Of a DNA stretch of 24,000 nt, positions 6,450 to 16,442 are shown piece by piece. The notes under the pieces were generated by a model. It saw only the letters and a list, made by a program, of their open reading frames with translations, was not told the origin of the DNA and did no database searches. The DNA comes from Weeksellaceae bacterium (lineage in GTDB: Bacteria; Bacteroidota; Bacteroidia; Flavobacteriales; Weeksellaceae), in NCBI GenBank assembly GCA_019459455.1, contig JAIBEX010000021.1:197576-221575 (forward strand), in the 5' to 3' direction. A program made the translations under genes and the position numbers. The first letter of the stretch is position 1. Every line of letters starts with the position of its first letter.

Positions 6450-9400
6450 ATGAAACAACCCACGATAAAACTCCTCCTCCTGCACCTGCTCCTGCTGTCG
6501 GCAATCCTTGATGCTCAGGACCGCCATGAAAATGAACTGGCCGGTATTATTGCCCGCACGGAGATACCCGGGCACCTCAAGGGCGCTCCCGGTGGCCGGT
6601 GGGTGGCATGGCGGAAGACCTATGATACGAGGAACGATACGCTGCGGATTCAGAATACGCTGAAGCCCGCGCGTTTTTTCCACCGTCTGCACATCCGCGA
6701 CTACGGCTTTATGCGCGGGGATGAGCTGTGGCTCCTCGGGAAGGACGGACAGGCGGAATGGCTGAATATGGATACAGGAAAGGCGGTGCGGTACAGCGGG
6801 GTGGCGGCAGTGCAGTACCTGTCCGCACGGGACCTCCTCCTCCTGCACCACACACCGGATGCCGGAAACCGGATGGTCATACTGGACCGGAAGGGAAGGC
6901 CGGTGTGTACCGTGGAGGACGTGGTGCGGTTTACCGTAACTCCGGAAGACACCGTGCTTGCCGTAACCGGCCCTAAGGGTGGTCCGTACAGGGTGGTGAA
7001 AACCGCGGGCACCGGTCCGGTACAGGAGGTGTTCCGTACAGATAAGGAGGTCACAACCACGCTCAGCCCGGCGGGTGCGCAGGGTGTGCTGGCAATCGTG
7101 GCCGATGCCGGTACGCGTGATGCCGTATTTGTGGAATCCGCCACCGGCAAGGTGCACCGCCTCTCCGCACTGGTGCCAGGGCCGTTTAAAAGTGTCGTGC
7201 CGGAACTGCCGGCCGGAGGCGAAGGCTTTCTGCTGAAACTGATCTCCTCGGCACCGCCAAAGCAGACAGAGCTGCCCGATATATGGTACGGGAGCGACCG
7301 GAACCTGCAGCAGAAATTCTATCCGGACCGCACGCAGACCGTTATTTGGCATCCCGCCCGCAACACCGTGGACGATTTCGGGGGCTACCGCTTCAGCCGC
7401 TCCTTCGGAGTGAACAGCGGACGGTATTTCCTGAGTTTCGACGAAACGGCACTGCAGGATTATACCGAGCTTTACCCGCCGCTGAAAATGTACAGGTACG
7501 ACGCGGTCACGGGATCACATGCGGTAATGGATACCATCAGCCGGGAACTGTTCGCAGATCCCAACGGAAAGTGGCTGCTGGCCCCTGTGGCCGGACGAAT
7601 ACCTGTTGCCGATTACAGAGATCCTAAAGTAGCCCGATGGCATCTTTATGAAACTGCCGGCGGAAGAAAGACCGTCCTGAACAGTGCGGGGCTGGGGGCT
7701 CCGTATTTCACCGGTTCGGGCACCATTTTATTCGACGGCGATGGGGGTATCCGCAGCTACCTGCCCGCACAGAATAAACTGCAGATGATGGCCCCGTTTG
7801 AAGGATGCCGCGTAAAGATCCTGAACGGAACCGCAACGGCCCTGCTGCAGCCCTTCCGGTTTTTTACCCCGGCAGTGAATGAAGACCAGCCCCTTTTGCT
7901 GGAAGTGACCGAAAAAGAGACCGGCAGGGTGATGTTCGCCCTCCGCCACCGGGGCATCACCACCGTTATTGTTCCGTTCACCGCGGACCGGATCACGCAT
8001 TTTACTCCTGATGCCGGGCTGGAACGTTTTACCTGGATCCGCGAAAACCACAACAAACCTCCTGCCGTGGAAACCGCCACCCGCAGCGGGAAGGTGCGTC
8101 TGCTCTATGCCAGCAATGCAAACCGCAGGCAGGAAGCGGCCCTGCATCTGGAACTTACGACTTATAAAGGGATATCGGGCGGCAACCTGAAGGGCCTGCT
8201 GTATCGACCAGCACACTATGAAGCCGGAAAGAAATATCCCGTGGTCGTCCATATTTATGAAAACCAGAGCCGCTATGCGAACCGGTTTATTGCACCGACG
8301 CTGAAGGAATTCGTGGGCTTTAACATCCGGACCCTTACCGAAAAAGGATATTTCGTTTATCTGCCGGACATTGACTACGGGGAGGCAGGCCCCGGCCTTT
8401 CGGCACTGCACTGCGTGAACCGCGCGGTGGATGCCCTTCTGGAAAACCCGGCGGTTGATGCGGGCAGGATCGCCCTCATCGGCCAGTCCTTCGGAGGCTA
8501 TGAAACCAACTTCATTGCCACCCGGTCAGGTCGCTTCGCCACGTATATCTCCGGTAATGCGCCGGCTGATCTCGTACATAATTATCACGCTTTCAGCTAC
8601 AATTATTTCAAGCCCGGCTTCTGGCGTTATGAGACCCAGCAGTTCCGCATGGGGGTCTCTTTTGCTGCCGGTAAGCAGAAATATATTGCCAACAGTCCGC
8701 TCCACCATGCGGAAAAGGTACAGTCCCCCATGCTGCTCTGGACCGGTCTGGAGGACCGCAATGTAGACTGGGAAGAAACCCGCACCTTTTACAATGCGCT
8801 GAAGCGGAATGACAAAAAAGTGATTGCCCTGTTTTATAAGAACAACGGCCACGGCATGCAGCATGAGGATGCCATGATGGACCTGAGCAAACGCATCCTG
8901 GACTGGCTGGATTATTTCCTGAAGGGAATCCCCGCCGAATGGATAGGGAAGGAGATGGAGTCGCGGCCGGTCGCGCACCTGACCCCAGATGCAGCGCCAG
9001 AAAGTCCTGCATGGATCCGGGAAAACCATAATCTGCCTCCTGCAGTGGAAACCGTCACCCGCAGCGGGAGGGTGCGTGTACCTCAGGCTGGCAATGCCCA
9101 CCTCCGGCAGGAAGTAGCCTTACATCTCGAACTTACGGCTTATAAAGGGGTGTCGGGCGGGAACCTGAAGGGGCTGCTGTACCGTCCCGCCCATTATGAA
9201 ACCGGAAAGAAATATCCTGCGGTCGTCCATATTTACGAAGACCAGAGCCGCTTTGCAAACCGGTTCATTGCACCTACCCTGAAGGAACCGCTCGGTTTTA
9301 ACATCCGGACCCTTACTGAAAAAGGATATTTCGTTTATCTGCCGGACATTGATTATGGAGACGAAGGTCCGGGCCTTTCGGCACTGCACTGCGTGAACCG

Positions 9401-10013
9401 CGCAATGGATGCGCTCCTGGAGCATCCCGGAGTGGATGCGCGAAGGATGGCGCTCATCGGCCAGTCTTTCGGAGGCTATGAAACCAACTTCATTGCCACC
9501 CGGTCAAATCGTTTTGTTGCTTATATCTCCGGCACCGCGCACGCTGATCTCGTACATACTTATCATTCGTTCAATTACAATTACCTTAAGCCCACCTTTT
9601 GGCGTCATGAAACTCAGCAGGTCCGCATGGGGGTCCCCTTTGCTGCCAATAAGCAGAAATACATTGCCAACAGTCCGCTCTACCATGCCGAAAAGATACA
9701 GGCTCCCATGTTGCTTTGGACCGGTTTGGAAGACCGAAATGTGGATTGGGAAGATACCCGAAGCTTTTATAACGCCCTGCGCAGAAACGACAAAAAAGTG
9801 ATTGCCCTGTTCTATAAGAACAATGGCCACGGCATGGAGCACGAGGATGCCATGATGGACCTAAGTAAACGCATCCTGGACTGGCTGGATTATTTCCTGA
9901 AGGGAATCCCCTCCGAATGGATAGGGAAGGAGATGGAGCAAGATAGTGGTCCGGAAGTGTTAACCGGCGGACCACGAATCAAAATGCAGATCTTGGATTC
10001 CACCACTTTATAA
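6450..10013 (+). CDS. Secreted S9 (prolyl oligopeptidase/DPP-type) serine peptidase: N-terminal propeller-like region plus two tandem alpha/beta-hydrolase catalytic domains
   Basis: It starts with a signal peptide (MKQPTIKLLLLHLLLLSAILDAQ). Two copies of the catalytic domain are present. Each has the nucleophile elbow GQSFGG (8481..8498 and 9459..9476), the acid motif GLEDRNVD and the His motif NNGHGM. Confidence 0.9.
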   Translation: MKQPTIKLLLLHLLLLSAILDAQDRHENELAGIIARTEIPGHLKGAPGGRWVAWRKTYDTRNDTLRIQNTLKPARFFHRLHIRDYGFMRGDELWLLGKDGQAEWLNMDTGKAVRYSGVAAVQYLSARDLLLLHHTPDAGNRMVILDRKGRPVCTVEDVVRFTVTPEDTVLAVTGPKGGPYRVVKTAGTGPVQEVFRTDKEVTTTLSPAGAQGVLAIVADAGTRDAVFVESATGKVHRLSALVPGPFKSVVPELPAGGEGFLLKLISSAPPKQTELPDIWYGSDRNLQQKFYPDRTQTVIWHPARNTVDDFGGYRFSRSFGVNSGRYFLSFDETALQDYTELYPPLKMYRYDAVTGSHAVMDTISRELFADPNGKWLLAPVAGRIPVADYRDPKVARWHLYETAGGRKTVLNSAGLGAPYFTGSGTILFDGDGGIRSYLPAQNKLQMMAPFEGCRVKILNGTATALLQPFRFFTPAVNEDQPLLLEVTEKETGRVMFALRHRGITTVIVPFTADRITHFTPDAGLERFTWIRENHNKPPAVETATRSGKVRLLYASNANRRQEAALHLELTTYKGISGGNLKGLLYRPAHYEAGKKYPVVVHIYENQSRYANRFIAPTLKEFVGFNIRTLTEKGYFVYLPDIDYGEAGPGLSALHCVNRAVDALLENPAVDAGRIALIGQSFGGYETNFIATRSGRFATYISGNAPADLVHNYHAFSYNYFKPGFWRYETQQFRMGVSFAAGKQKYIANSPLHHAEKVQSPMLLWTGLEDRNVDWEETRTFYNALKRNDKKVIALFYKNNGHGMQHEDAMMDLSKRILDWLDYFLKGIPAEWIGKEMESRPVAHLTPDAAPESPAWIRENHNLPPAVETVTRSGRVRVPQAGNAHLRQEVALHLELTAYKGVSGGNLKGLLYRPAHYETGKKYPAVVHIYEDQSRFANRFIAPTLKEPLGFNIRTLTEKGYFVYLPDIDYGDEGPGLSALHCVNRAMDALLEHPGVDARRMALIGQSFGGYETNFIATRSNRFVAYISGTAHADLVHTYHSFNYNYLKPTFWRHETQQVRMGVPFAANKQKYIANSPLYHAEKIQAPMLLWTGLEDRNVDWEDTRSFYNALRRNDKKVIALFYKNNGHGMEHEDAMMDLSKRILDWLDYFLKGIPSEWIGKEMEQDSGPEVLTGGPRIKMQILDSTTL
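7998..9938 (+). repeat. In-frame tandem duplication inside the peptidase gene (unit 978 bp = 326 codons; copy 1 is 7998..8960, copy 2 is 8976..9938)
   Basis: Three checkpoints give an identical 978-bp offset: HFTPDA/HLTPDA at 7998/8976, GQSFGG at 8481/9459, and GKEME at 8946/9924. The copies are clearly diverged, with many synonymous differences, and I saw no indels between the checkpoints. Confidence 0.9.
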
Positions 10014-10170
10014 AAAATCAGCGGACTCCCTTGTGGCATAAAATGCCAGCCGGCTCCCTTTAGGGTAGGGGTAAAACGGCTGGAATTTTATTCCTTCCTC
10101 TTTGTACTGTCTGCTACTTAAATATCGGTGTAAGGGAGTTAGGGCAATTTGGGTGCACAATTCTCCAAAA

Positions 10171-10418
10171 GAAAACACGAACCTTTGCCCCGACCCTAAA
10201 GGGTGGTTTCGTGTTTTCTTACCACATTTCTCAAAAAAAATCAGCGGACTCCCTTCAGGGTTAGGGGTAAAACCGCTGATTTTTTTCTTTAAGCGTCTGA
10301 GATAAAGTCTGCCCAAAACTGCTTAATAACCCCAATCCTTATGAAAAATTCCAACCGACTCCCTTTTTATGCTGAGCCTGTCGAAGTAAGGTCTTGGGGT
10401 AAAACGGCTCGAATTTTT
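10171..10418. repeat. Left copy of a roughly 245-bp composite direct repeat built from three hairpin modules
   Basis: It aligns by eye to 10877..11121 with an offset of about 706-709 bp. The modules are GAAAACACGAAcc-[CCCCGACCCTAAAGGG]-ggTTTCGTGTTTTC, then AAAAATCAGCGG-[ACTCCCTTCAGGGTTAGGGGTAAAA]-CCGCTGATTTTT, then TTCCAACCG-[...GCTGAGCCTGTCGAAG...GGGGTAAAA]-CGGCTCGAA. Confidence 0.85.
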
Positions 10419-10422
10419 GACT

Positions 10423-10821
10423 TTACATTTCCAGTTCCTCTATTTTAAGGCTTATCAGTTCAAGTACACAAGCTATATTTTCCTCTACTTCCTTATTGGT
10501 GAATCTGATAACTGCACAGCCTTGTTCCTCAAGGGTTTTTGTCCGATCTGTATCGTGCAGTATCTGGTTATCATTGTCGTGATACTCCCCGTCAATTTCA
10601 ATGATGAGGCTGTACTTATGACAATAAAAATCTGCAATATAAAGGTGGATGGGATGCTGCCTTCTGAACTTTAATCCTTTGAACTGCCTGTTTCTCAATT
10701 TTTCCCAAAGCATTTTTTCACACTTCGTAAGCGGATGCCGTAGCTTTACTGCTTTTATAAATCCCTCATTTGGTGCCCCCTTCCACATGCCATTATCATG
10801 ATTAGGTTTTATGGTATCCAC
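10423..10821 (-). CDS. DUF559 / Vsr-like endonuclease-domain protein
   Basis: The sequence PLTKCEKMLWEKLRNRQFKGLKFRRQHPIHLYIADFYCHKYSLIIEIDGEYHDNDNQILHDTDRTKTLEEQGCAVIRFTNKEV fits the DUF559 pattern (R.Q..i..yivDFyc......iE.DG..H........D..R...L...G..vlRf.n..v). The gene is AT-rich relative to the flanks. Confidence 0.85.
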   Translation of the reverse strand: MDTIKPNHDNGMWKGAPNEGFIKAVKLRHPLTKCEKMLWEKLRNRQFKGLKFRRQHPIHLYIADFYCHKYSLIIEIDGEYHDNDNQILHDTDRTKTLEEQGCAVIRFTNKEVEENIACVLELISLKIEELEM

Positions 10822-10876
10822 TGTGTATTTTTTTAAATTAAGGATAAATTAAGTTCACGTTCATTCAGTGGTACTT

Positions 10877-11121
10877 AGAAAATCCGAATCCATGACCCCG
10901 ACCCTAAAGGGGGAGATCCGGATTTTCTTACCGCGTTTCAAAAAAATCAGTGGACTCCCTTTAGGACTCGGGGTAAAACCGCTGATTTTTTTTTAAGCGT
11001 CTGAGATAACGTCTGCCCAAAACTTCTTACAAACATCAATCCTTATGAAAAATTCCAGCCGGCTCCCTTTTTATGCTGAGCCTGTCGAAGTAAGGGGCAG
11101 GGGTAAAACGGTTGGAATTTT
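10877..11121. repeat. Right copy of the roughly 245-bp composite direct repeat
   Basis: It has the same three hairpin modules in the same order as 10171..10418. Additional partial modules lie at 10013..10089 and 11122..11158. Confidence 0.85.
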
Positions 11122-11183
11122 CGCCCCTGGGCTCGGGCTAAAAACCGCTGATTTTTTCTTTATCCTCCCAGCCAACCACCATT

Positions 11184-11216
11184 AAAAAAGGGCTGCTTCC
11201 GTAAAGAAGCAGCCCC
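11184..11216 (-). terminator. Rho-independent terminator of the minus-strand operon
   Basis: A perfect 10-bp stem (GGGCTGCTTC / GAAGCAGCCC, 11190..11199 and 11206..11215) with a 6-nt loop. On the minus strand it is followed by TTTTTT, and it lies 6 nt after the stop codon at 11222. Confidence 0.85.
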
Positions 11217-11221
11217 TTTCT

Positions 11222-11491
11222 CTAGTTTATCCTGCTGAGCTGCAGACCGCACATCGTCTCATTCACAAACTGGTACAGGTTGTGCGTCGTAACACCGTCG
11301 TCCCACGTACATGCCGGGCCTTCAGTCGTTGAGCAGTCCACCGGTGTTTCTATACACTTCACTCCGGGAGCTGCCGGGTCATAACGGAAGCCCTGTACAA
11401 TAGTGGCATTTTTTTCTTTCGCCACGCCTGTTGCAAATGCACTTCCTGCGCCGATTAGAATAACGGCTGCAGGTAAAATGAATCTTTTCAT
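11222..11491 (-). CDS. Small secreted 4-Cys protein (resembles the Bacteroidota DUF6520-type family; this is from recollection only)
   Basis: It has a signal peptide (MKRFILPAAVILIGAGSAFA). The mature part is about 69 aa with four Cys (VKCIETPVDCSTTEGPACTW...ETMCGL). It starts 24 nt downstream of the MauE/DoxX gene and ends at the terminator. Confidence 0.75.
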   Translation of the reverse strand: MKRFILPAAVILIGAGSAFATGVAKEKNATIVQGFRYDPAAPGVKCIETPVDCSTTEGPACTWDDGVTTHNLYQFVNETMCGLQLSRIN

Positions 11492-11515
11492 CTTTTTAAA
11501 AATTTAAAATGGTGC

Positions 11516-13027
11516 CTACTCTCTTGAAGGTTTTCGGCTTCCCCTGCTTTTAAAATACCGGGTAAGGTTCTGCGCAAAACGGTACCGGATAAGTTCACTG
11601 CCGGCCAGAACGAACAGATGTTCGTCCGTCGCCAGAAATTGTATTCGTTTAATATTTTCGGGTCGGCTGAGGTAAAAACTGCCGGTGTAACGTTGCTCTT
11701 CGGTGCTGTACACATCAATTACTGCGGCGCGTTTCCGGAGGGTTTTGTCTTCATGCAGCCCTGGCCGGTCGGATTCGATAAAGATCAGGCCCCCGTATGC
11801 CGATGCTTTTTTGTTCACGGTAACCGGAGGTGCGTTCATTTGTTCAGCCCCGGACGGAAGGCGTACCGACTTCACACGCTTCACACTGGCCGTATCAATG
11901 GTGTGATAGTTCGCGTACTTCCGCATCCCGTAATCGGTTCCCAGAAATTCATTCCGGTAGTAGTACAGGTAGAACAGCTTTTCCGTGGCGGGGTCCTGAA
12001 GCAACTGCCCGTCTGCACCGAATATACCGTCCTTACCATGCTTCAGAAGCTGCTCATTTAATTCAAGCGGCGGCTCTGCCTGCGGCTTCAGAAGTCCAAG
12101 TACATGGCTCCTCGTTTTGCTGCTTTGGGCACGGATACCGAAACTTAGTGAATCAATAACTTCAAGCTGGTCGAAATACGCCTGCTTATGACTCAGCGTC
12201 TTGGCTTCGGCCTGTCCCAGTTCGCCGGAATAGATAACCGGCACACTGCCGTCGTAAGCATAAAACCGGTTCCCGCTTACTGCAAGCCGTACCGACCGGA
12301 ACAGGTAGGGGCTGTGGTCAGGCTTGATCTTCATCTCCTGCAGCACAGTCAGTGCAAAGTCAGCGGAAGTCAGAAGGAATGGCGTTCCGGTGTTTCCCAG
12401 CCAAACCTGATCCTGTGCTGTTCCGGCAAAATAGTAGGCATCACCCGGCAGGGTCAGACGCTTTTCTTCTGTCACAGGGTGGGGAATATACCGCCTGGTA
12501 AAGTTGTTCTCCTTTTTAATAATATGTTCTGAGGAAAGGAACAGACCAACCATGATTCCCGCGGCGGTCACAAACAGGACGCCCAGATGAAGCCGTTTTC
12601 TGCGGCCCGTAATATGGTTTCCCGTTGCAATCCATATCCCTGTCGCCCCAAGTATCACACAGACAAGGTTGAATATAAGATGCTCCGTCCATCCGAGATC
12701 TTCCAGAATGCCTCCGCAGGAGCACGGCACAAAATCACTGAAATGAAGAATAAGGTAAATATAGACGGTGAACGCTACCATAAGGCCGGTCGCCAGATAA
12801 AGGGATAGGGTTTTAGTCCGCTCGAAGCAAAACAGCAGTACGGTAATAAGCTCGGCACCGATAACTCCGTACGATACAGCTTCTGCGTATGCACTTAGTA
12901 ACGGCGACTGTGCCAGTTGTACCTGAAACTCTTCAAATTCCAGCACTTTGCTTAAAGCGGCGTAAGTAAACAGCAGCATAAAGAAGAAGCAGATCGCCCG
13001 TACAGTATTTGATTTTATATTTTTCAT
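11516..13027 (-). CDS. MauE/DoxX-type redox-associated membrane domain fused to a roughly 330-aa C-terminal domain of unknown function
   Basis: The N-terminal ~150 aa has 4-5 predicted TM helices and the motif FVPCSCGGILEDLGW, which is characteristic of MauE/DoxX-like proteins. The rest is beta-rich with no motif I recognise. Confidence 0.85.
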   Translation of the reverse strand: MKNIKSNTVRAICFFFMLLFTYAALSKVLEFEEFQVQLAQSPLLSAYAEAVSYGVIGAELITVLLFCFERTKTLSLYLATGLMVAFTVYIYLILHFSDFVPCSCGGILEDLGWTEHLIFNLVCVILGATGIWIATGNHITGRRKRLHLGVLFVTAAGIMVGLFLSSEHIIKKENNFTRRYIPHPVTEEKRLTLPGDAYYFAGTAQDQVWLGNTGTPFLLTSADFALTVLQEMKIKPDHSPYLFRSVRLAVSGNRFYAYDGSVPVIYSGELGQAEAKTLSHKQAYFDQLEVIDSLSFGIRAQSSKTRSHVLGLLKPQAEPPLELNEQLLKHGKDGIFGADGQLLQDPATEKLFYLYYYRNEFLGTDYGMRKYANYHTIDTASVKRVKSVRLPSGAEQMNAPPVTVNKKASAYGGLIFIESDRPGLHEDKTLRKRAAVIDVYSTEEQRYTGSFYLSRPENIKRIQFLATDEHLFVLAGSELIRYRFAQNLTRYFKSRGSRKPSRE

Positions 13028-13822: not shown

Positions 13823-15559
13823 ATGCTGCACCACTCTTTTTCGACCGTAGAAATGTTTAAAATTGGATGGATTGTCTGTTTTGCTCTTGCCTGCGTTTCT
13901 GCTCGTGGTCAGAAACGCACCGATATTCCTTATAAACAGTTTCAGGAAATCTATGACCGCTATCCGGAAAACGATGTACGCGGGCTGCCTTTTGTTCAGA
14001 TGCACATCGGGCAGGCCATAAAAGACAGCCGCCCCAAGCAGCTGCTCATTGCGTATGAAAATGCGGTTTTCTTTTCTACCGGCAGGCAGGACAAACTCAG
14101 GTATGCAGACAGTGCTGTTGCGGTAGCCCATAACCTGAAGGACAGCAGCCGGATAAGCAGGGCCTATTTGGGAAAGGGCATTGTCTATTATTTCAGTTTT
14201 CGCAGGTATAAGTCCGCACTCAATGAATATCTGAAGGCATACGATTATTCCGGTTCTGACCGCGGGTCCTACCTGCACCACAAGATCCGGTATCATTTGG
14301 GTGAGGTAAAAAGCTACCTTGGCCATTGTGAAGAGGCTTTGGAGCATTTTGAAAACTGCCTCCCGTACTTTCAGAAGAACATCGCAGCCGGCAACCATCC
14401 GAACGAAATCTACAACAGCACGCGCGGCTATCTGAACACCCTCCATCAGATGATTGTCTGCAACCAGAGACTGCGTTTGTGGGCCAGGGCCGATTCCCTG
14501 ACCGCCACAGCGGCGGCAGCAGTAAACCGGCTGCACGGATTTGAGCAGGAAAAGGGATACGTCTATAAGTGCCTGGGACGTTCTGCGTTCCGGAAAGGGA
14601 ACTACCGCTCCGCCATTGCATTGCTCCGAACATCCAACAGGCTGCTGGCGCGGGCGGATGATTTTACGTGGACTGCGCTGAATGATTTCTACATCGGTAA
14701 ATCCCATCTGCACATGAAGCAGACGGCGAAAGCAGTGGCCTGCTTTCAAAAAGTGGATTCCTCCTTCATTAAACACAGGTTCCTGCTTCCCGAATTGCGG
14801 GAAAACTACGAACTGCTCATTACACATTACAGGAAAGCAGGGCGGCAGGACCGCGAACTTTATTACACACAGCAGTTACTGAAGGTGGACGCCTTCCTGG
14901 CAGAAGATTTTGATTACGTCATGACGCGCATGCACAAAGAATATGATACCCGGACGCTTCGGGCAGATAAAGTGAGGCTCGAAAAAGCGTCTCAAACCCA
15001 GTCACGGATGATCACCCTGCTTGCAGTTACCGCCGCGCTCCTGTTATTGTTCCTGGTGTACCGGTACCACAGGGCGAGGCGGGTACATCACAAGTACCTG
15101 CAGCTCCTTGCAAAGCTGGAGGCTCTTCAGAATAAAGGGGGAACGCCTGGCACCCCTGCGGGAACCGTGGGACGGAAGTATGAATACCGTGATGAAATTA
15201 CGCAGGAACTTTTGGAAAAACTCCGCATATTTGAAGAAAAGAAAGGTTTTACAGCAAAAGGCCTGACCCTCCGCAAACTTGCCAGCAAATTGGATACGAA
15301 TGGTACCCACTTATCCTACGTGATTAACGGGTATAAAGGGATGAACTTCAATACCTACCTTAAACACCTGCGGATCAATTATATTACCCAGTTGCTGTAC
15401 AGTGACAGGAAGTACCTGAACTACACCATGGATGGCCTGGCCGCAGAATGTGGTATTGCCTCCCGCCAGAACTTTTCGGATCATTTTTATGAGATCAACG
15501 GTTTGCGGCCACGGGAATTCATTGAGAAGTACAGAAAGGAGAACCGGCCCGGTGTGTAG
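13823..15559 (+). CDS. Membrane-anchored TPR-containing AraC-family transcriptional regulator (one-component sensor)
   Basis: There is an N-terminal signal/anchor (an alternative start is MFKIGWIVCFALACVSARGQ at 13853). This is followed by about 380 aa of TPR-like repeats, a TM helix (ITLLAVTAALLLLFLVY) and a C-terminal AraC HTH (LTLRKLASKLDTNGTHLSYVING...GIASRQNFSDHFYEINGLRPREF). Confidence 0.9.
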   Translation: MLHHSFSTVEMFKIGWIVCFALACVSARGQKRTDIPYKQFQEIYDRYPENDVRGLPFVQMHIGQAIKDSRPKQLLIAYENAVFFSTGRQDKLRYADSAVAVAHNLKDSSRISRAYLGKGIVYYFSFRRYKSALNEYLKAYDYSGSDRGSYLHHKIRYHLGEVKSYLGHCEEALEHFENCLPYFQKNIAAGNHPNEIYNSTRGYLNTLHQMIVCNQRLRLWARADSLTATAAAAVNRLHGFEQEKGYVYKCLGRSAFRKGNYRSAIALLRTSNRLLARADDFTWTALNDFYIGKSHLHMKQTAKAVACFQKVDSSFIKHRFLLPELRENYELLITHYRKAGRQDRELYYTQQLLKVDAFLAEDFDYVMTRMHKEYDTRTLRADKVRLEKASQTQSRMITLLAVTAALLLLFLVYRYHRARRVHHKYLQLLAKLEALQNKGGTPGTPAGTVGRKYEYRDEITQELLEKLRIFEEKKGFTAKGLTLRKLASKLDTNGTHLSYVINGYKGMNFNTYLKHLRINYITQLLYSDRKYLNYTMDGLAAECGIASRQNFSDHFYEINGLRPREFIEKYRKENRPGV

Positions 15560-15593
15560 GAACGCAGTATTATTAAGAATAAGCGCTAAAATT

Positions 15594-16442
15594 ATGAATT
15601 CAAAACTGCTTTTCAGTAAATGCGACGCTCTATGGAAACAGCTGAATGAGAACACGGACCGGCTGCGGCGGGAGCACAGTGACTTTTTTGATTTTGCGGA
15701 AGGGGTATTGGCGGAAACGGACGAAGCGGTGCGGCAGCTTAAAGCGTGGATCACTACACATGAATTCGGCTGTTGGCAGGAGGAGGTGACCTTCTTCAGG
15801 GAGATAAAGCCCAGATTTGTTTCCCGCTTTATCTATTTTTCCCGCATCCTTTCGGTGGAGGCTTCTGTACCCTCCACAGGCGCGAAGGAACTGAGAAAAT
15901 ACTATGAAAAAGAACTGAATGCACTCGACTATTTTTCCTCGGAAAACCGGGATTTCATTAATTATTACCGTAGGAAAGCCACCTACCTGGACCTGAAGTA
16001 TTTTGTCCGCTTCCGTTACGATCTGAAAGTAAAACTTGCCCCCGATCTTCACAGCTATGATGAGAAATTCTCGACATCACATGATCTGACTGTTGCACAC
16101 ATTCTGGCTAATGATGAACTGGAAATCTATCTGCGCGGAAAAATAAGAAACACGGAAAAAACTTCGGTGGAAGAAGCCGCTCCCTCAAGACCGCTTCACT
16201 GGTCCGCCTCCAAAACGGCGCTTGTGGAACTTTTGGTTGCGCTGCACCACGCCAGGTGCTTCAATGGCGGCAATACCGAATTCTCCGAAATCGTCCGGTG
16301 GGCGGAGCGCTCCCTGGACATTGACCTGGGGCACTACCATAAAACCATTGGCGAAATCCGGAACAGAAAGATCGAACGCACGAAATTTCTCAAAATGTTG
16401 AATGAAGGTCTGACGCAAATGTTTGAGGAACTCGATGAATAG
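15594..16442 (+). CDS. rteC: RteC-domain protein (an excision-regulator family from Bacteroides conjugative transposons)
   Basis: Track ORF 15432..16442 overlaps the previous gene, so I prefer the start MNSKLLFSK at 15594. RteC-like motifs are present: EVTFFREIKPRF, YYEKELNALDYF, FINYYRRKATYLDLKYFVR, FSTSHDLTVAHILAND, LHWSASKTALVELLVALH, and IRNRKIERTKFL. Confidence 0.88.
   Translation: MNSKLLFSKCDALWKQLNENTDRLRREHSDFFDFAEGVLAETDEAVRQLKAWITTHEFGCWQEEVTFFREIKPRFVSRFIYFSRILSVEASVPSTGAKELRKYYEKELNALDYFSSENRDFINYYRRKATYLDLKYFVRFRYDLKVKLAPDLHSYDEKFSTSHDLTVAHILANDELEIYLRGKIRNTEKTSVEEAAPSRPLHWSASKTALVELLVALHHARCFNGGNTEFSEIVRWAERSLDIDLGHYHKTIGEIRNRKIERTKFLKMLNEGLTQMFEELDE

Follow-up and report, generated by a model that had tools for sequence, protein, structure and literature searches.

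We analyzed a 24,000-nucleotide stretch of DNA from a Weeksellaceae bacterium (assembly GCA_019459455.1, contig JAIBEX010000021.1, positions 197,576 to 221,575; hereafter, the window) and found that one of its intergenic gaps contains a gene for a DUF559 nuclease surrounded by hairpin-forming repeats. The gap is 1.2 kb long and extends from the stop codon of a gene for an S9 peptidase (6450-10013, + strand) to a convergent DUF6520 gene (11222-11491, - strand). It has a GC content of 42%, compared to 51% in the whole window. There is one real gene in the gap, that for the DUF559 protein (39% GC), together with seven full hairpin modules and two half modules (Table 1). Spurious open reading frames arise from the repeats.

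A DUF559 gene in an array of hairpin modules

The full modules have a common plan: a run of A's, one arm of a 7-13 bp stem, a loop of ~25 nt with a sequence near ACTCCCTTTAGGGTAGGGGTAAAAC, the complementary arm, and a run of T's. Five modules are in the forward orientation, including two variants with a long loop, and two are in the reverse orientation. The core of the loop, CCCCGACCCTAAAGGG, is found exactly at 10188-10203 and 10896-10911, and its forward form is at 10056-10071. Variants of the core are at 10250-10271, 10956-10977, 10360-10403 and 11064-11107. No core-type match elsewhere in the 24 kb had the form of a module, and the strict 24-nt pattern for the core is expected to occur zero times by chance.

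Stem pairs that had been quoted for these modules were recovered as real inverted repeats in a repeat search of the window. When modules were folded as single strands and compared to shuffled sequences, five had z-scores between -2.8 and -5.8; the long-loop variants were weaker (-0.7 and -2.1). Three of the modules make up a composite unit that is present twice, and the two copies have a mean column identity of 91%. Paired changes in the first stem distinguish the copies: ACACG/CGTGT in one and ATCCG/CGGAT in the other. The DUF559 gene lies between the two units, with its stop codon 6 bp from the end of module M4. We presume that the 55-bp spacer on its other side contains the promoter and 5' leader; the available promoter scan is of the sigma-70 type and is not made for Bacteroidota promoters.

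The half modules lie outside the composite units, and their arms, at 10012-10024 and 11145-11157, are 100% complementary. The pair looks like one old module that was split by everything now in between. The left half module and the M4-type long-loop variant are also kept in two relatives of the window lineage (L119 and L212, described below). In addition, arms appear to have been swapped between modules. The left arm of M4 (10345-10357) pairs perfectly with the right arm of M4' (11109-11121), and the right arm of M1 (10077-10089) pairs perfectly with the left arm of M4' (11049-11061). Some modules have arms that are mismatched with each other despite pairing perfectly with the arms of other modules. 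This looks like the expected outcome of crossovers inside the conserved core.

The initial annotation, made by a model from the sequence of the window, had described the gap as built almost wholly of repeat modules with a conserved 16-nt core or its complement, had noted that the stems vary between copies yet stay complementary, and had placed an AT-rich DUF559 gene between two copies of a three-module unit with partial modules outside. This description held up throughout.

Table 1. Features of the gap between the S9 peptidase and DUF6520 genes. Positions are those of the window; z is the score of the single-strand fold against shuffled sequences.
Feature	Position	Strand	Remarks
Half module M0L: A-run, left stem ATCAGCGG, first 8 nt of core (ACTCCCTT)	10012..10032	+	directly after the S9 peptidase stop codon
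Module M1: stem CCAGCCG/CGGCTGG, core GCTCCCTTTAGGGTAGGGGTAAAAC	10039..10091	+	single-stranded DNA fold -12.8 kcal/mol, z -3.8
Left composite unit, M2-M3-spacer-M4	10165..10422		direct repeat of 10871-11125; 136-nt stretch at 89%
Module M2: minus-strand core, stem GAAAACACGAA/TTCGTGTTTTC	10169..10220	-	z -4.3
Module M3: A7-ATCAGCGG, core, CCGCTGAT-T7	10234..10286	+	-15.8 kcal/mol, z -5.8
Module M4: long loop, insert of ~24 nt after CTCCCTT of core	10345..10417	+	z -0.7 (weak predicted fold)
DUF559 (YcjD-like, Vsr-fold PD-(D/E)XK) nuclease gene, 132 aa, GTG start	10423..10821	-	
AT-rich 55-bp spacer 5' of the DUF559 gene	10822..10876	-	presumed promoter and 5' leader
Right composite unit, M2'-M3'-spacer-M4'	10871..11125		
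Module M2': copy of M2 with compensating stem changes GAAAATCCGAATC/GATCCGGATTTTC	10877..10928	-	z -2.8
Module M3': copy of M3 (91%)	10940..10992	+	z -4.2
Module M4': long-loop copy	11049..11121	+	z -2.1
Half module M0R: degenerate core (CCCCTGGGCTCGGGCTAAAAAC), right stem CCGCTGAT, T-run	11124..11157	+	complementary to M0L
Ordinary terminator hairpin of the DUF6520 gene	11186..11219		outside the repeat family; marks the old intergenic boundary

The core is conserved across Bacteroidota and the stems are not

We scanned one genome per species for the exact pattern of the loop core and found at least 117 stretches that contain it. Among the matches listed, these are from Flavobacteriales, Bacteroidales/Marinilabiliales, Cytophagales, Saprospiraceae and Chitinophagaceae, all Bacteroidota; the exceptions are a few contigs of metagenome-assembled genomes that have no phylum label and one that is labelled Rickettsiales. 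The core is constant in these loci, and the stem that encloses it is specific to the lineage.

The initial annotation had proposed a covariation analysis of the stems, and we did this by permuting the stem partners. An outer stem of at least 7 bp was present in 76 of 144 modules from other Bacteroidota genomes, whereas permuted partners gave 7.0 on average and never more than 16. There were 34 distinct stem sequences. That is, pairing is kept while the sequence varies. The recurring unit is the conserved 'loop' and the stems are lineage-specific, which corrects the earlier view of the element.

Almost all of the modules (186/191) are intergenic, and their orientation had no bias relative to neighboring genes: of the copies downstream of a gene, 79 were on the same strand and 86 on the opposite strand, and of the copies upstream, 69 and 92, respectively. 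We rejected the reading of the modules as plain intrinsic terminators, as the terminator scan did not call them (their loops are 25 nt) and there is no strand bias. We also rejected integron cassettes with attC sites: there are no other cargo genes between the modules, and here it is the loop that is conserved and not the stem. We found no Rfam family for the modules, either at the gathering score (window plus 13 related loci) or at an E-value threshold (gap), where matches were at chance level only (e.g., plastid 3'UTR hairpins).

Some of the stretches contain tandem arrays of modules with no gene, with periods from 52 to ~230 bp (L040, 3813-3991; L092, six copies on the minus strand; L099, 129-621; L106, 7168-7564; L075, 5695-5993). 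In Flavobacteriia, modules are often in clusters for polysaccharide synthesis, near genes for epimerases/dehydratases, RmlD, Wzz, a sugar transferase or MBOAT (L014, L040, L094, L099, L100, L011 and L056).

The gene encodes a YcjD-like nuclease

The protein encoded in the gap matched the Pfam model for DUF559 (PF04480) with 117.7 bits (cut-off 20.6; E = 2.8e-34) over residues 23-127. DUF559 and MTES_1575 were the only Pfam families that it matched; the search of this protein detected no HUH/Y1 transposase (IS200/IS605 TnpA type) and no transposase domain of any class. Its nearest relative of solved structure is the DUF559 protein NGO0050 of Neisseria gonorrhoeae (3HRL; sequence-profile E = 4.6e-25). 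An AlphaFold model of the window protein (pLDDT 80) aligned to 3HRL with a TM-score of 0.83, normalized by the target, at 37% identity. The next structural relatives are the Vsr-fold homing endonuclease I-Bth0305I (PDB 3R3P; sequence-profile E = 3.6e-4, model TM-score 0.64) and PvuRts1I. YcjD of Escherichia coli is 46% identical to the window protein over ~70% of the latter. In an alignment of 25 homologues, 40 columns were invariant. These include D64, E75, D77 and H81, which by analogy are probably catalytic. The window protein also has a conserved N-terminal extension (MWKGAP...), a region modelled with low confidence.

The gene is inherited vertically under purifying selection in the window lineage. 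The ratio of nonsynonymous to synonymous substitution rates was 0.15 between the window and L119, in which the protein is 69% identical, and that of the neighboring DUF6520 gene was 0.17. A DUF559 protein of Caulobacter, VsrA, behaves as a repair-type nuclease that can trigger the SOS response in a methyltransferase mutant (PMC12907096), indicating that members of this family can damage DNA in vivo.

The exact DUF559 protein of the window is otherwise recorded only on a Logan contig of 1032 bp (L001) that ends inside repeat cores, indicating that the repeats break short-read assemblies. Most of the homologues from the protein search are also on contigs of ~1 kb. In a search by fold, mitoribosomal proteins of Toxoplasma and Tetrahymena resembled the DUF559 model (ranks 2, 3, 6 and 9; TM-score ~0.49 by query). 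This agrees with DUF559-like domains that have reportedly been seen in Plasmodium proteins.

Repeats adjoin DUF559 genes in several phyla

We looked at the association of gene and repeat from both sides. Among the matches listed for the loop core, 6 of the 117 loci have a DUF559 open reading frame, always 9-189 bp from a module. In four of these six loci, modules frame the gene as they do in the window; a single syntenic locus of Flavobacterium accounts for three of the six. In these motif-picked loci, we found no second non-syntenic family that was consistently within ~200 bp of a module. The other recurrent neighbors in this set were genes for polysaccharide synthesis (the largest group, mostly in Flavobacteriia) and syntenic orthologues. 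Modules were present at the gene in every locus of a close homologue that was examined (L119-L131; exact protein identity).

From the side of the gene, we used 80 metagenome loci that were picked by the DUF559 protein alone (42-60% identity to the window protein). The Bacteroidota core was within 300 bp of the gene in 45 of these, and the rest had other sequences of the same design. To count these we used a detector that does not depend on a particular sequence: a pyrimidine-only arm of at least 4 nt, a loop of 2-6 nt, a perfect purine arm, and GGG within 10 nt. A motif of this design was within 200 bp of the gene in 70 of the 80 loci and on both sides of it in 51. The density of the motif was 7.3/kb near the gene, compared to 0.20/kb at distances greater than 500 bp, a 37-fold difference. 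A stricter detector that calls for the mirror tail described below gave similar results (69/80 loci; 5.4 versus 0.16/kb). Shuffled sequence had about a tenth of the motif count of the far regions. As a negative control, we searched 2.9 million viral contigs and obtained 18 distant relatives of DUF559 (34-43% identity). Only 5 of these 18 genes had the motif, and most of these were weak matches. We rejected carriage by phages as the main route of spread, given that only these 18 distant viral relatives were found and most are without the motif.

The spacing between gene and repeat is tight. The upstream copy is 17-89 bp from the start codon and the downstream copy 1-18 bp after the stop codon, and in most loci one module is directly 3' of the stop codon. 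The most common layout, in 13 of the 80 loci, has inverted copies hugging the gene with their tails pointing outward. Within the DNA examined, 78 of the 80 loci had a single copy of DUF559. The initial annotation had asked whether the repeats might be ubiquitous terminators that have nothing to do with DUF559. These results from loci picked by protein, 70 of 80 with the motif at the borders of the gene and a 37-fold local enrichment, indicate otherwise.

The same arrangement of gene and repeat is found outside of Bacteroidota: in Cyanobacteria (Picosynechococcus and Pseudanabaena), in Deinococcus (between paaD and paaZ), in Alphaproteobacteria and in Gammaproteobacteria. In Sphingomonas, the gene is in the spacer between sufB and sufC (L218, a plasmid of Sphingomonas parapaucimobilis, 1504-1914), and in E. 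coli it is ycjD. N. gonorrhoeae has a degenerate form. In Flavobacteriia, one widespread DUF559 gene lies between a gene for EpsG and a GT2 gene. The sufB-sufC spacer of Azospirillum lipoferum 4B (H140) contains a GIY-YIG nuclease gene instead, and this spacer seems to attract small nuclease genes.

The repeat has the design of intrastrand triplex motifs

The repeats next to DUF559 homologues have a shared design: a pyrimidine arm, a loop, a purine arm, a linker that is mostly 3 nt, and a purine tail that repeats the purine arm in mirror order, with A or T in place of A. One instance reads CCCCTCTCCT-ca-AGGAGAGGGG-tt-GGGGTGAGGT. For 140 unique instances beside DUF559 homologues, all with arms of 6 nt or more, we compared the tail to the triads G*G:C, A*A:T and T*A:T. 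Compatibility was 90% or higher in 76 of them. When tails were permuted (500 runs), the mean number of compatible instances was 15.3 and the maximum was 28. The tail base opposite A was T in 108 cases, A in 106, G in 4 and C in 3 (A or T in 214/221), and that opposite G was G in 534 of 554. These rules, as read from the sequences, are those of a purine-motif triplex.

Judged by its sequence, then, the repeat belongs to an already described class of intrastrand-triplex motifs, called BoxC, PIT motifs or TM_ECO in the literature (Hoyne and Maher; Holder et al. 2015, PMC4666352). The published consensus is CCCTCNCCC-N3-6-GGGNGAGGG-N3-GGGNGAGGG, and there are 23 copies in E. coli K-12, 3610 in 262 proteobacterial genomes, and hundreds in cyanobacteria (PMC4666352). 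As single-stranded DNA, the E. coli version forms a stable triplex as determined by circular dichroism and nuclear magnetic resonance; TM loci are associated with local genome rearrangement and are unstable in E. coli (PMC4666352). In Bacteroidota the motif has a short form, CCCT-TT-AGGG-NNG-GGGT, and this is the 'loop' of the larger, lineage-specific hairpin. The core in the window, CCCT-TT-AGGG-TAG-GGGT, has only four triads and a 3-nt linker and is below the 6-nt limit for arms in the ITxF definition. We rejected a G-quadruplex, a structure considered for these sequences (Kaplan 2016), since a single module in the window has only two G-runs and cannot form one.

The paper that described the class reported no common flanking gene and no mobility function for these repeats, and mentions neither endonucleases, nor ycjD, nor DUF559 (PMC4666352); the paper on G-quadruplexes and hairpins (Kaplan 2016) likewise gives neither a common flanking gene nor a mobility function and leaves the same three unmentioned. 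In a literature search that omitted most subscription journals, the available text of publications that mention DUF559 or ycjD made no link to triplex repeats, and nothing relevant was found on the Bacteroidota core, on intergenic repeats of Bacteroidetes, or on DUF559/Vsr proteins with repeats (REP/RAYT included). The link between YcjD/DUF559 and these orphan repeats appears to be unreported.

Repeats and ycjD in E. coli

In E. coli, ycjD is located between sapF and fabI and has TM-type (TM_ECO) repeats downstream. The order sapF-ycjD-fabI was present in 3374 of 5426 complete E. coli genomes. According to a published survey, ycjD is found in phylogroups A, B1 and C, and the eef operon is at this site in phylogroups B2, D, E and F (PMC12817139). 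We confirmed the eef operon at the site in one ST131 genome. A clean empty allele in strains without ycjD was considered and rejected, as the site holds the eef efflux operon. In K-12, the end of the ycjD reading frame falls within a degenerate hairpin of the triplex type, the loop of which contains the stop codon (L221, 5408-5430), and a published survey describes a 12-nt insertion at the end of ycjD in ST69 and ST182.

We found that genomes with ycjD contain more of the repeats. A composite query (ycjD plus one TM copy) was compared to all complete genomes, and an even spread of 60 was analyzed. The 37 genomes with ycjD each had one copy of the gene and 8-26 repeat places (median 18). In the 23 genomes without ycjD, there were 1-17 repeat places (median 3; Mann-Whitney p = 1.6e-9). 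Going by the phylogroups of its strains, a published table of copy numbers shows the same split as our sample. There are 19-30 copies in K-12, B, HS, 55989, IAI1, W and E24377A, 6-15 copies in O157:H7, UMN026, IAI39 and SMS-3-5, and 1-2 copies in CFT073, UTI89, IHE3034, S88, APEC O1 and JJ1886 (Table S7 in PMC4666352).

Occupied and empty sites

Comparison of the locus in close relatives, which the initial annotation had suggested as a way to see whether gene and repeats come and go together, revealed three states. We used three relatives of the window lineage (L119, L212 and L214) in which the MauE-like neighbor is 86-90% identical in all pairs. L119, like the window, has an array plus the gene, in synteny. 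L212 has an array only, of 1.1 kb and at least 12 modules, and no trace of the DUF559 gene was found in that array. L214 has an empty site: a 13-bp gap between two stop codons with one ordinary terminator hairpin, the counterpart of that at 11186-11219, as its sole element. It has neither a module nor a DUF559 gene at the site.

By the identities of the flanking genes, L119 groups with L212, so the gene was most simply lost in L212. The array of L212 has matches to the L119 arrays before and after the gene, which would fit a loss by recombination between the flanking repeats. Alignment with L119 did not locate the junction of such a deletion, as the arrays are too scrambled.

There are similar differences elsewhere. 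In Deinococcus psychrotolerans, a unit of 495 bp with inverted ends of 56 nt (98% complementary) lies between paaD and paaZ, and in D. sp. QL22 an unrelated 83-nt spacer separates these genes. In Pseudanabaena, the inverted ends are 40 nt and 100% complementary. The spacers of the empty sites in L214 and D. sp. QL22 could not be aligned with occupied ones, and no target-site duplication could be defined from the Deinococcus spacers because they are not homologous. One identical DUF559 protein was found in hundreds of metagenome samples, on contigs with either one copy of the gene and module or two copies in tandem.

A proposed model for the nuclease and its repeats

The reading that we prefer is that this locus is the Bacteroidota version of a partnership, present in several phyla, between a YcjD-like DUF559 nuclease and structured repeats, comparable to the one between repetitive extragenic palindromic (REP) sequences and RAYT transposases, with the nuclease acting on the folded repeat. 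Our confidence in it is evenly balanced. In such a model, DNA that becomes single-stranded during replication, transcription or repair would allow the unit to fold into a hairpin, and longer versions into an intrastrand triplex. The nuclease would recognize the fold and nick at or near it. In the window, the split of M0 and the insert of M4 both come after CTCCCTT, so a nick would be predicted within the small hairpin loop or beside it. Host repair and recombination could then copy, homogenize, duplicate or delete the repeats and the adjoining DNA. In this way the repeats would be spread and kept, arrays would be built, and the gene with its flanking repeats could be carried into new intergenic sites; the gene could also be lost by recombination between the flanking copies.

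A broader and more tentative proposal, possible but not one that we would favor on present evidence, is that YcjD-like DUF559 nucleases are the missing trans-acting enzymes of BoxC/PIT/TM repeats across many phyla. They would recognize the hairpin or triplex in single-stranded DNA, nick it, and thereby drive copying, homogenization and local instability.

Several findings weigh against the partnership. Among the matches listed, ~95% of the Bacteroidota motif loci are without a DUF559 gene in the stretches of 8 kb. The similarity of DUF559 proteins was significantly but only slightly higher within motif classes (0.433) than between them (0.410), and this weak co-variation is not strong evidence for specific recognition. 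The gene in the window is framed by direct composite units, each containing both orientations, rather than by a simple inverted pair. With arms of only 4 nt, formation of a triplex is not demonstrable for the window modules, and there are non-canonical bases: M2 has a C opposite A, and M3' has a broken arm. The triplex of the E. coli version was undetected in duplex DNA and by dimethyl sulfate footprinting in vivo (PMC4666352). The contrast between E. coli genomes with and without ycjD follows the phylogroups and represents few independent events, and repeats persist in the absence of the gene. Last, a hydrolytic PD-(D/E)XK nuclease cannot do strand transfer alone, so any spread of the repeats must be indirect.

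Alternative explanations

It is possible, though we consider it unlikely, that DUF559 is a selfish gene of the homing type that cuts repeats without the gene, so that repair of the break copies the gene and its flanks; the repeats would be landing sites kept by the host. The relation of the catalytic domain to that of I-Bth0305I (E = 3.6e-4; TM-score 0.64) would fit this, as would the near-perfect inverted-repeat ends, the presence or absence of the gene at fixed sites, and its insertion into the operon spacers sufB-sufC, paaD-paaZ and EpsG-GT2, the first of which holds a GIY-YIG nuclease in another species. However, E. coli has one gene and tens of unoccupied repeats, a condition that is stable over thousands of genomes, and ~95% of the Bacteroidota motif loci listed are unoccupied. 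The gene was single-copy in 78 of 80 loci and is inherited vertically at one site in the window lineage. In addition, the flanking repeats are whole and not the halves of a split target, with M0L/M0R as the only split module.

An improbable alternative is that DUF559 is a host nuclease for processing of DNA structures, one that removes or resolves folded repeats to allow replication, such that repeats are tolerated only where the nuclease is present. The smaller number of repeats where ycjD is absent is consistent with this, as are the Vsr-like family, with a repair-type member in Caulobacter that can cause the SOS response (PMC12907096), and the instability of TM loci in E. coli (PMC4666352). 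But this explanation does not account for repeats close against the two ends of the gene, in many cases as inverted copies that are nearly perfect, or for the insertion of gene and repeats together inside operons.

We think it very unlikely that gene and repeat are merely found in the same places, with repeats marking terminators or DNA prone to recombination and insertion where small acquired genes gather. TM loci are indeed hot spots for rearrangement, modules in Flavobacteriia cluster in variable polysaccharide loci, and modules of the window lineage have A and T runs like those of bidirectional terminators. But the association is specific to one gene family over several phyla, with a 37-fold local enrichment, and the distance of the repeats is 1-18 bp at the stop codon and 17-89 bp at the start codon. 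The only other recurrent neighbors among the motif-picked matches listed were polysaccharide-synthesis genes and syntenic orthologues, and the detector is not trivially positive, as distant viral DUF559 genes mostly lacked the motif (5/18, mostly weak).

Equally slight is the chance that the modules are cis-acting elements of the DUF559 transcript (a stabilizer, attenuator or insulator, with orphan copies serving other genes): although a module directly follows the stop codon in most loci and the outer stems in the window have T-runs, the modules have no strand bias (79/86 downstream, 69/92 upstream) and no Rfam match, they lie to either side of the gene and also form tandem arrays that have no gene, a tail in mirror order means nothing for Watson-Crick pairing when RNA folds, and the E. 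coli motifs are without promoter or terminator activity according to earlier work as cited in PMC4666352.

Other features near the array

In the S9 peptidase of 1187 aa that is encoded next to the array, the C-terminal catalytic half of ~330 aa is tandemly duplicated, giving two Peptidase_S9 matches, and the duplication adjoins the repeat array. The long form is also found in L119 (1200 aa), and short forms are found in L212 (873 aa) and L214 (842 aa). On the other side of the array, a DUF805b RNA motif (Rfam RF02914; 40.4 bits compared to a cut-off of 35.6) is at 11513-11547 (- strand), in the space that separates the end of the MauE-like gene from the start of the DUF6520 gene, and is conserved in this place in L119 (4013-4047) and L212 (11481-11515). 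Farther away, at 13823-16442 (+ strand), genes for an AraC/TPR-type regulator and then an RteC homologue make up a context that is typical of conjugative transposons of Bacteroidota. These neighbors are also present in L212 and L214.

Implications and comparison with known systems

The BoxC/PIT/TM repeats are well documented, but their origin, their spread and a partner gene were unreported in the papers of 2015 and 2016. YcjD/DUF559 is a widespread family that includes a gene of E. coli K-12. Linking the two yields, for the gene and the repeats alike, a concrete hypothesis that is testable in E. coli. If correct, it would add a second class of enzyme to the few lasting partnerships between repeats and nucleases in bacteria, it would explain local genome instability at the repeat sites, and it would point to a nuclease that reads the structure of DNA instead of its sequence. 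On the broader proposal above, this would be a second, independently evolved system like that of REPINs and RAYTs, and the enzyme would be the first known nuclease with specificity for a DNA triplex motif; in its Bacteroidota form the triplex motif is nested in a second hairpin.

The unit has some properties of an insertion sequence (IS) with its miniature inverted-repeat transposable elements. There are inverted ends of up to 56 nt, and the genome has scattered short doublets that share these ends but contain no gene. Unlike an IS, it has no transposase of a known class, and no target-site duplication could be defined. It also resembles the gene for I-Bth0305I, an EDxHD enzyme (3R3P), in having a related catalytic domain and in behaving as an insertion at fixed intergenic sites, which some relatives have in an empty state. 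In contrast to that system, the context is not that of an intron or intein, a large DNA-binding domain is absent, and the gene is stably single-copy despite many potential sites.

The proteins most like that in the window are YcjD and NGO0050 (3HRL). They are of the same Pfam family and fold, and repeats of the same design adjoin both genes; the window protein differs in its conserved N-terminal extension. The repeat itself is like BoxC/PIT/TM motifs in the order of its parts (C-rich arm, loop, G-rich arm, 3-nt loop, second G-rich arm), in its intergenic location without strand bias, in its occurrence in palindromic pairs, and in its link to local rearrangement. The version in the window is much shorter, has another sequence, and is nested in a second, lineage-specific hairpin.

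The likeness to REP/RAYT systems that the initial annotation had drawn stands in part. In both cases a single-copy, vertically inherited nuclease gene is flanked by short structured intergenic repeats that are far more numerous than the gene, and the repeats occur as singlets, inverted doublets and clusters with a sequence that varies by lineage and a design that is kept. The lower number of repeats in E. coli without the gene resembles a pattern known from REPINs and RAYTs, but it follows the phylogroups. The association itself and the inverted flanks agree with the comparison as well; the enzyme does not. RAYTs are HUH/Y1 transposases of the IS200/IS605 type, and here the enzyme is a Vsr-fold PD-(D/E)XK nuclease, so the system is an analogue of REP/RAYT and not a member of that family. 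The repeats differ too: the GTAG/CGTC tag of REP sequences is absent, the core is CTCCCTTTAGGGnnGGGGTAAAAC or a Y-R-R' variant, and what defines the repeat is a hairpin of pyrimidine and purine arms that is followed by a purine tail in mirror order. The system is best filed as a variant of the REP/RAYT-like partnership that is joined to an already described class of repeats, and that differs from REP/RAYT in the class of its enzyme and in the signature of its repeat.

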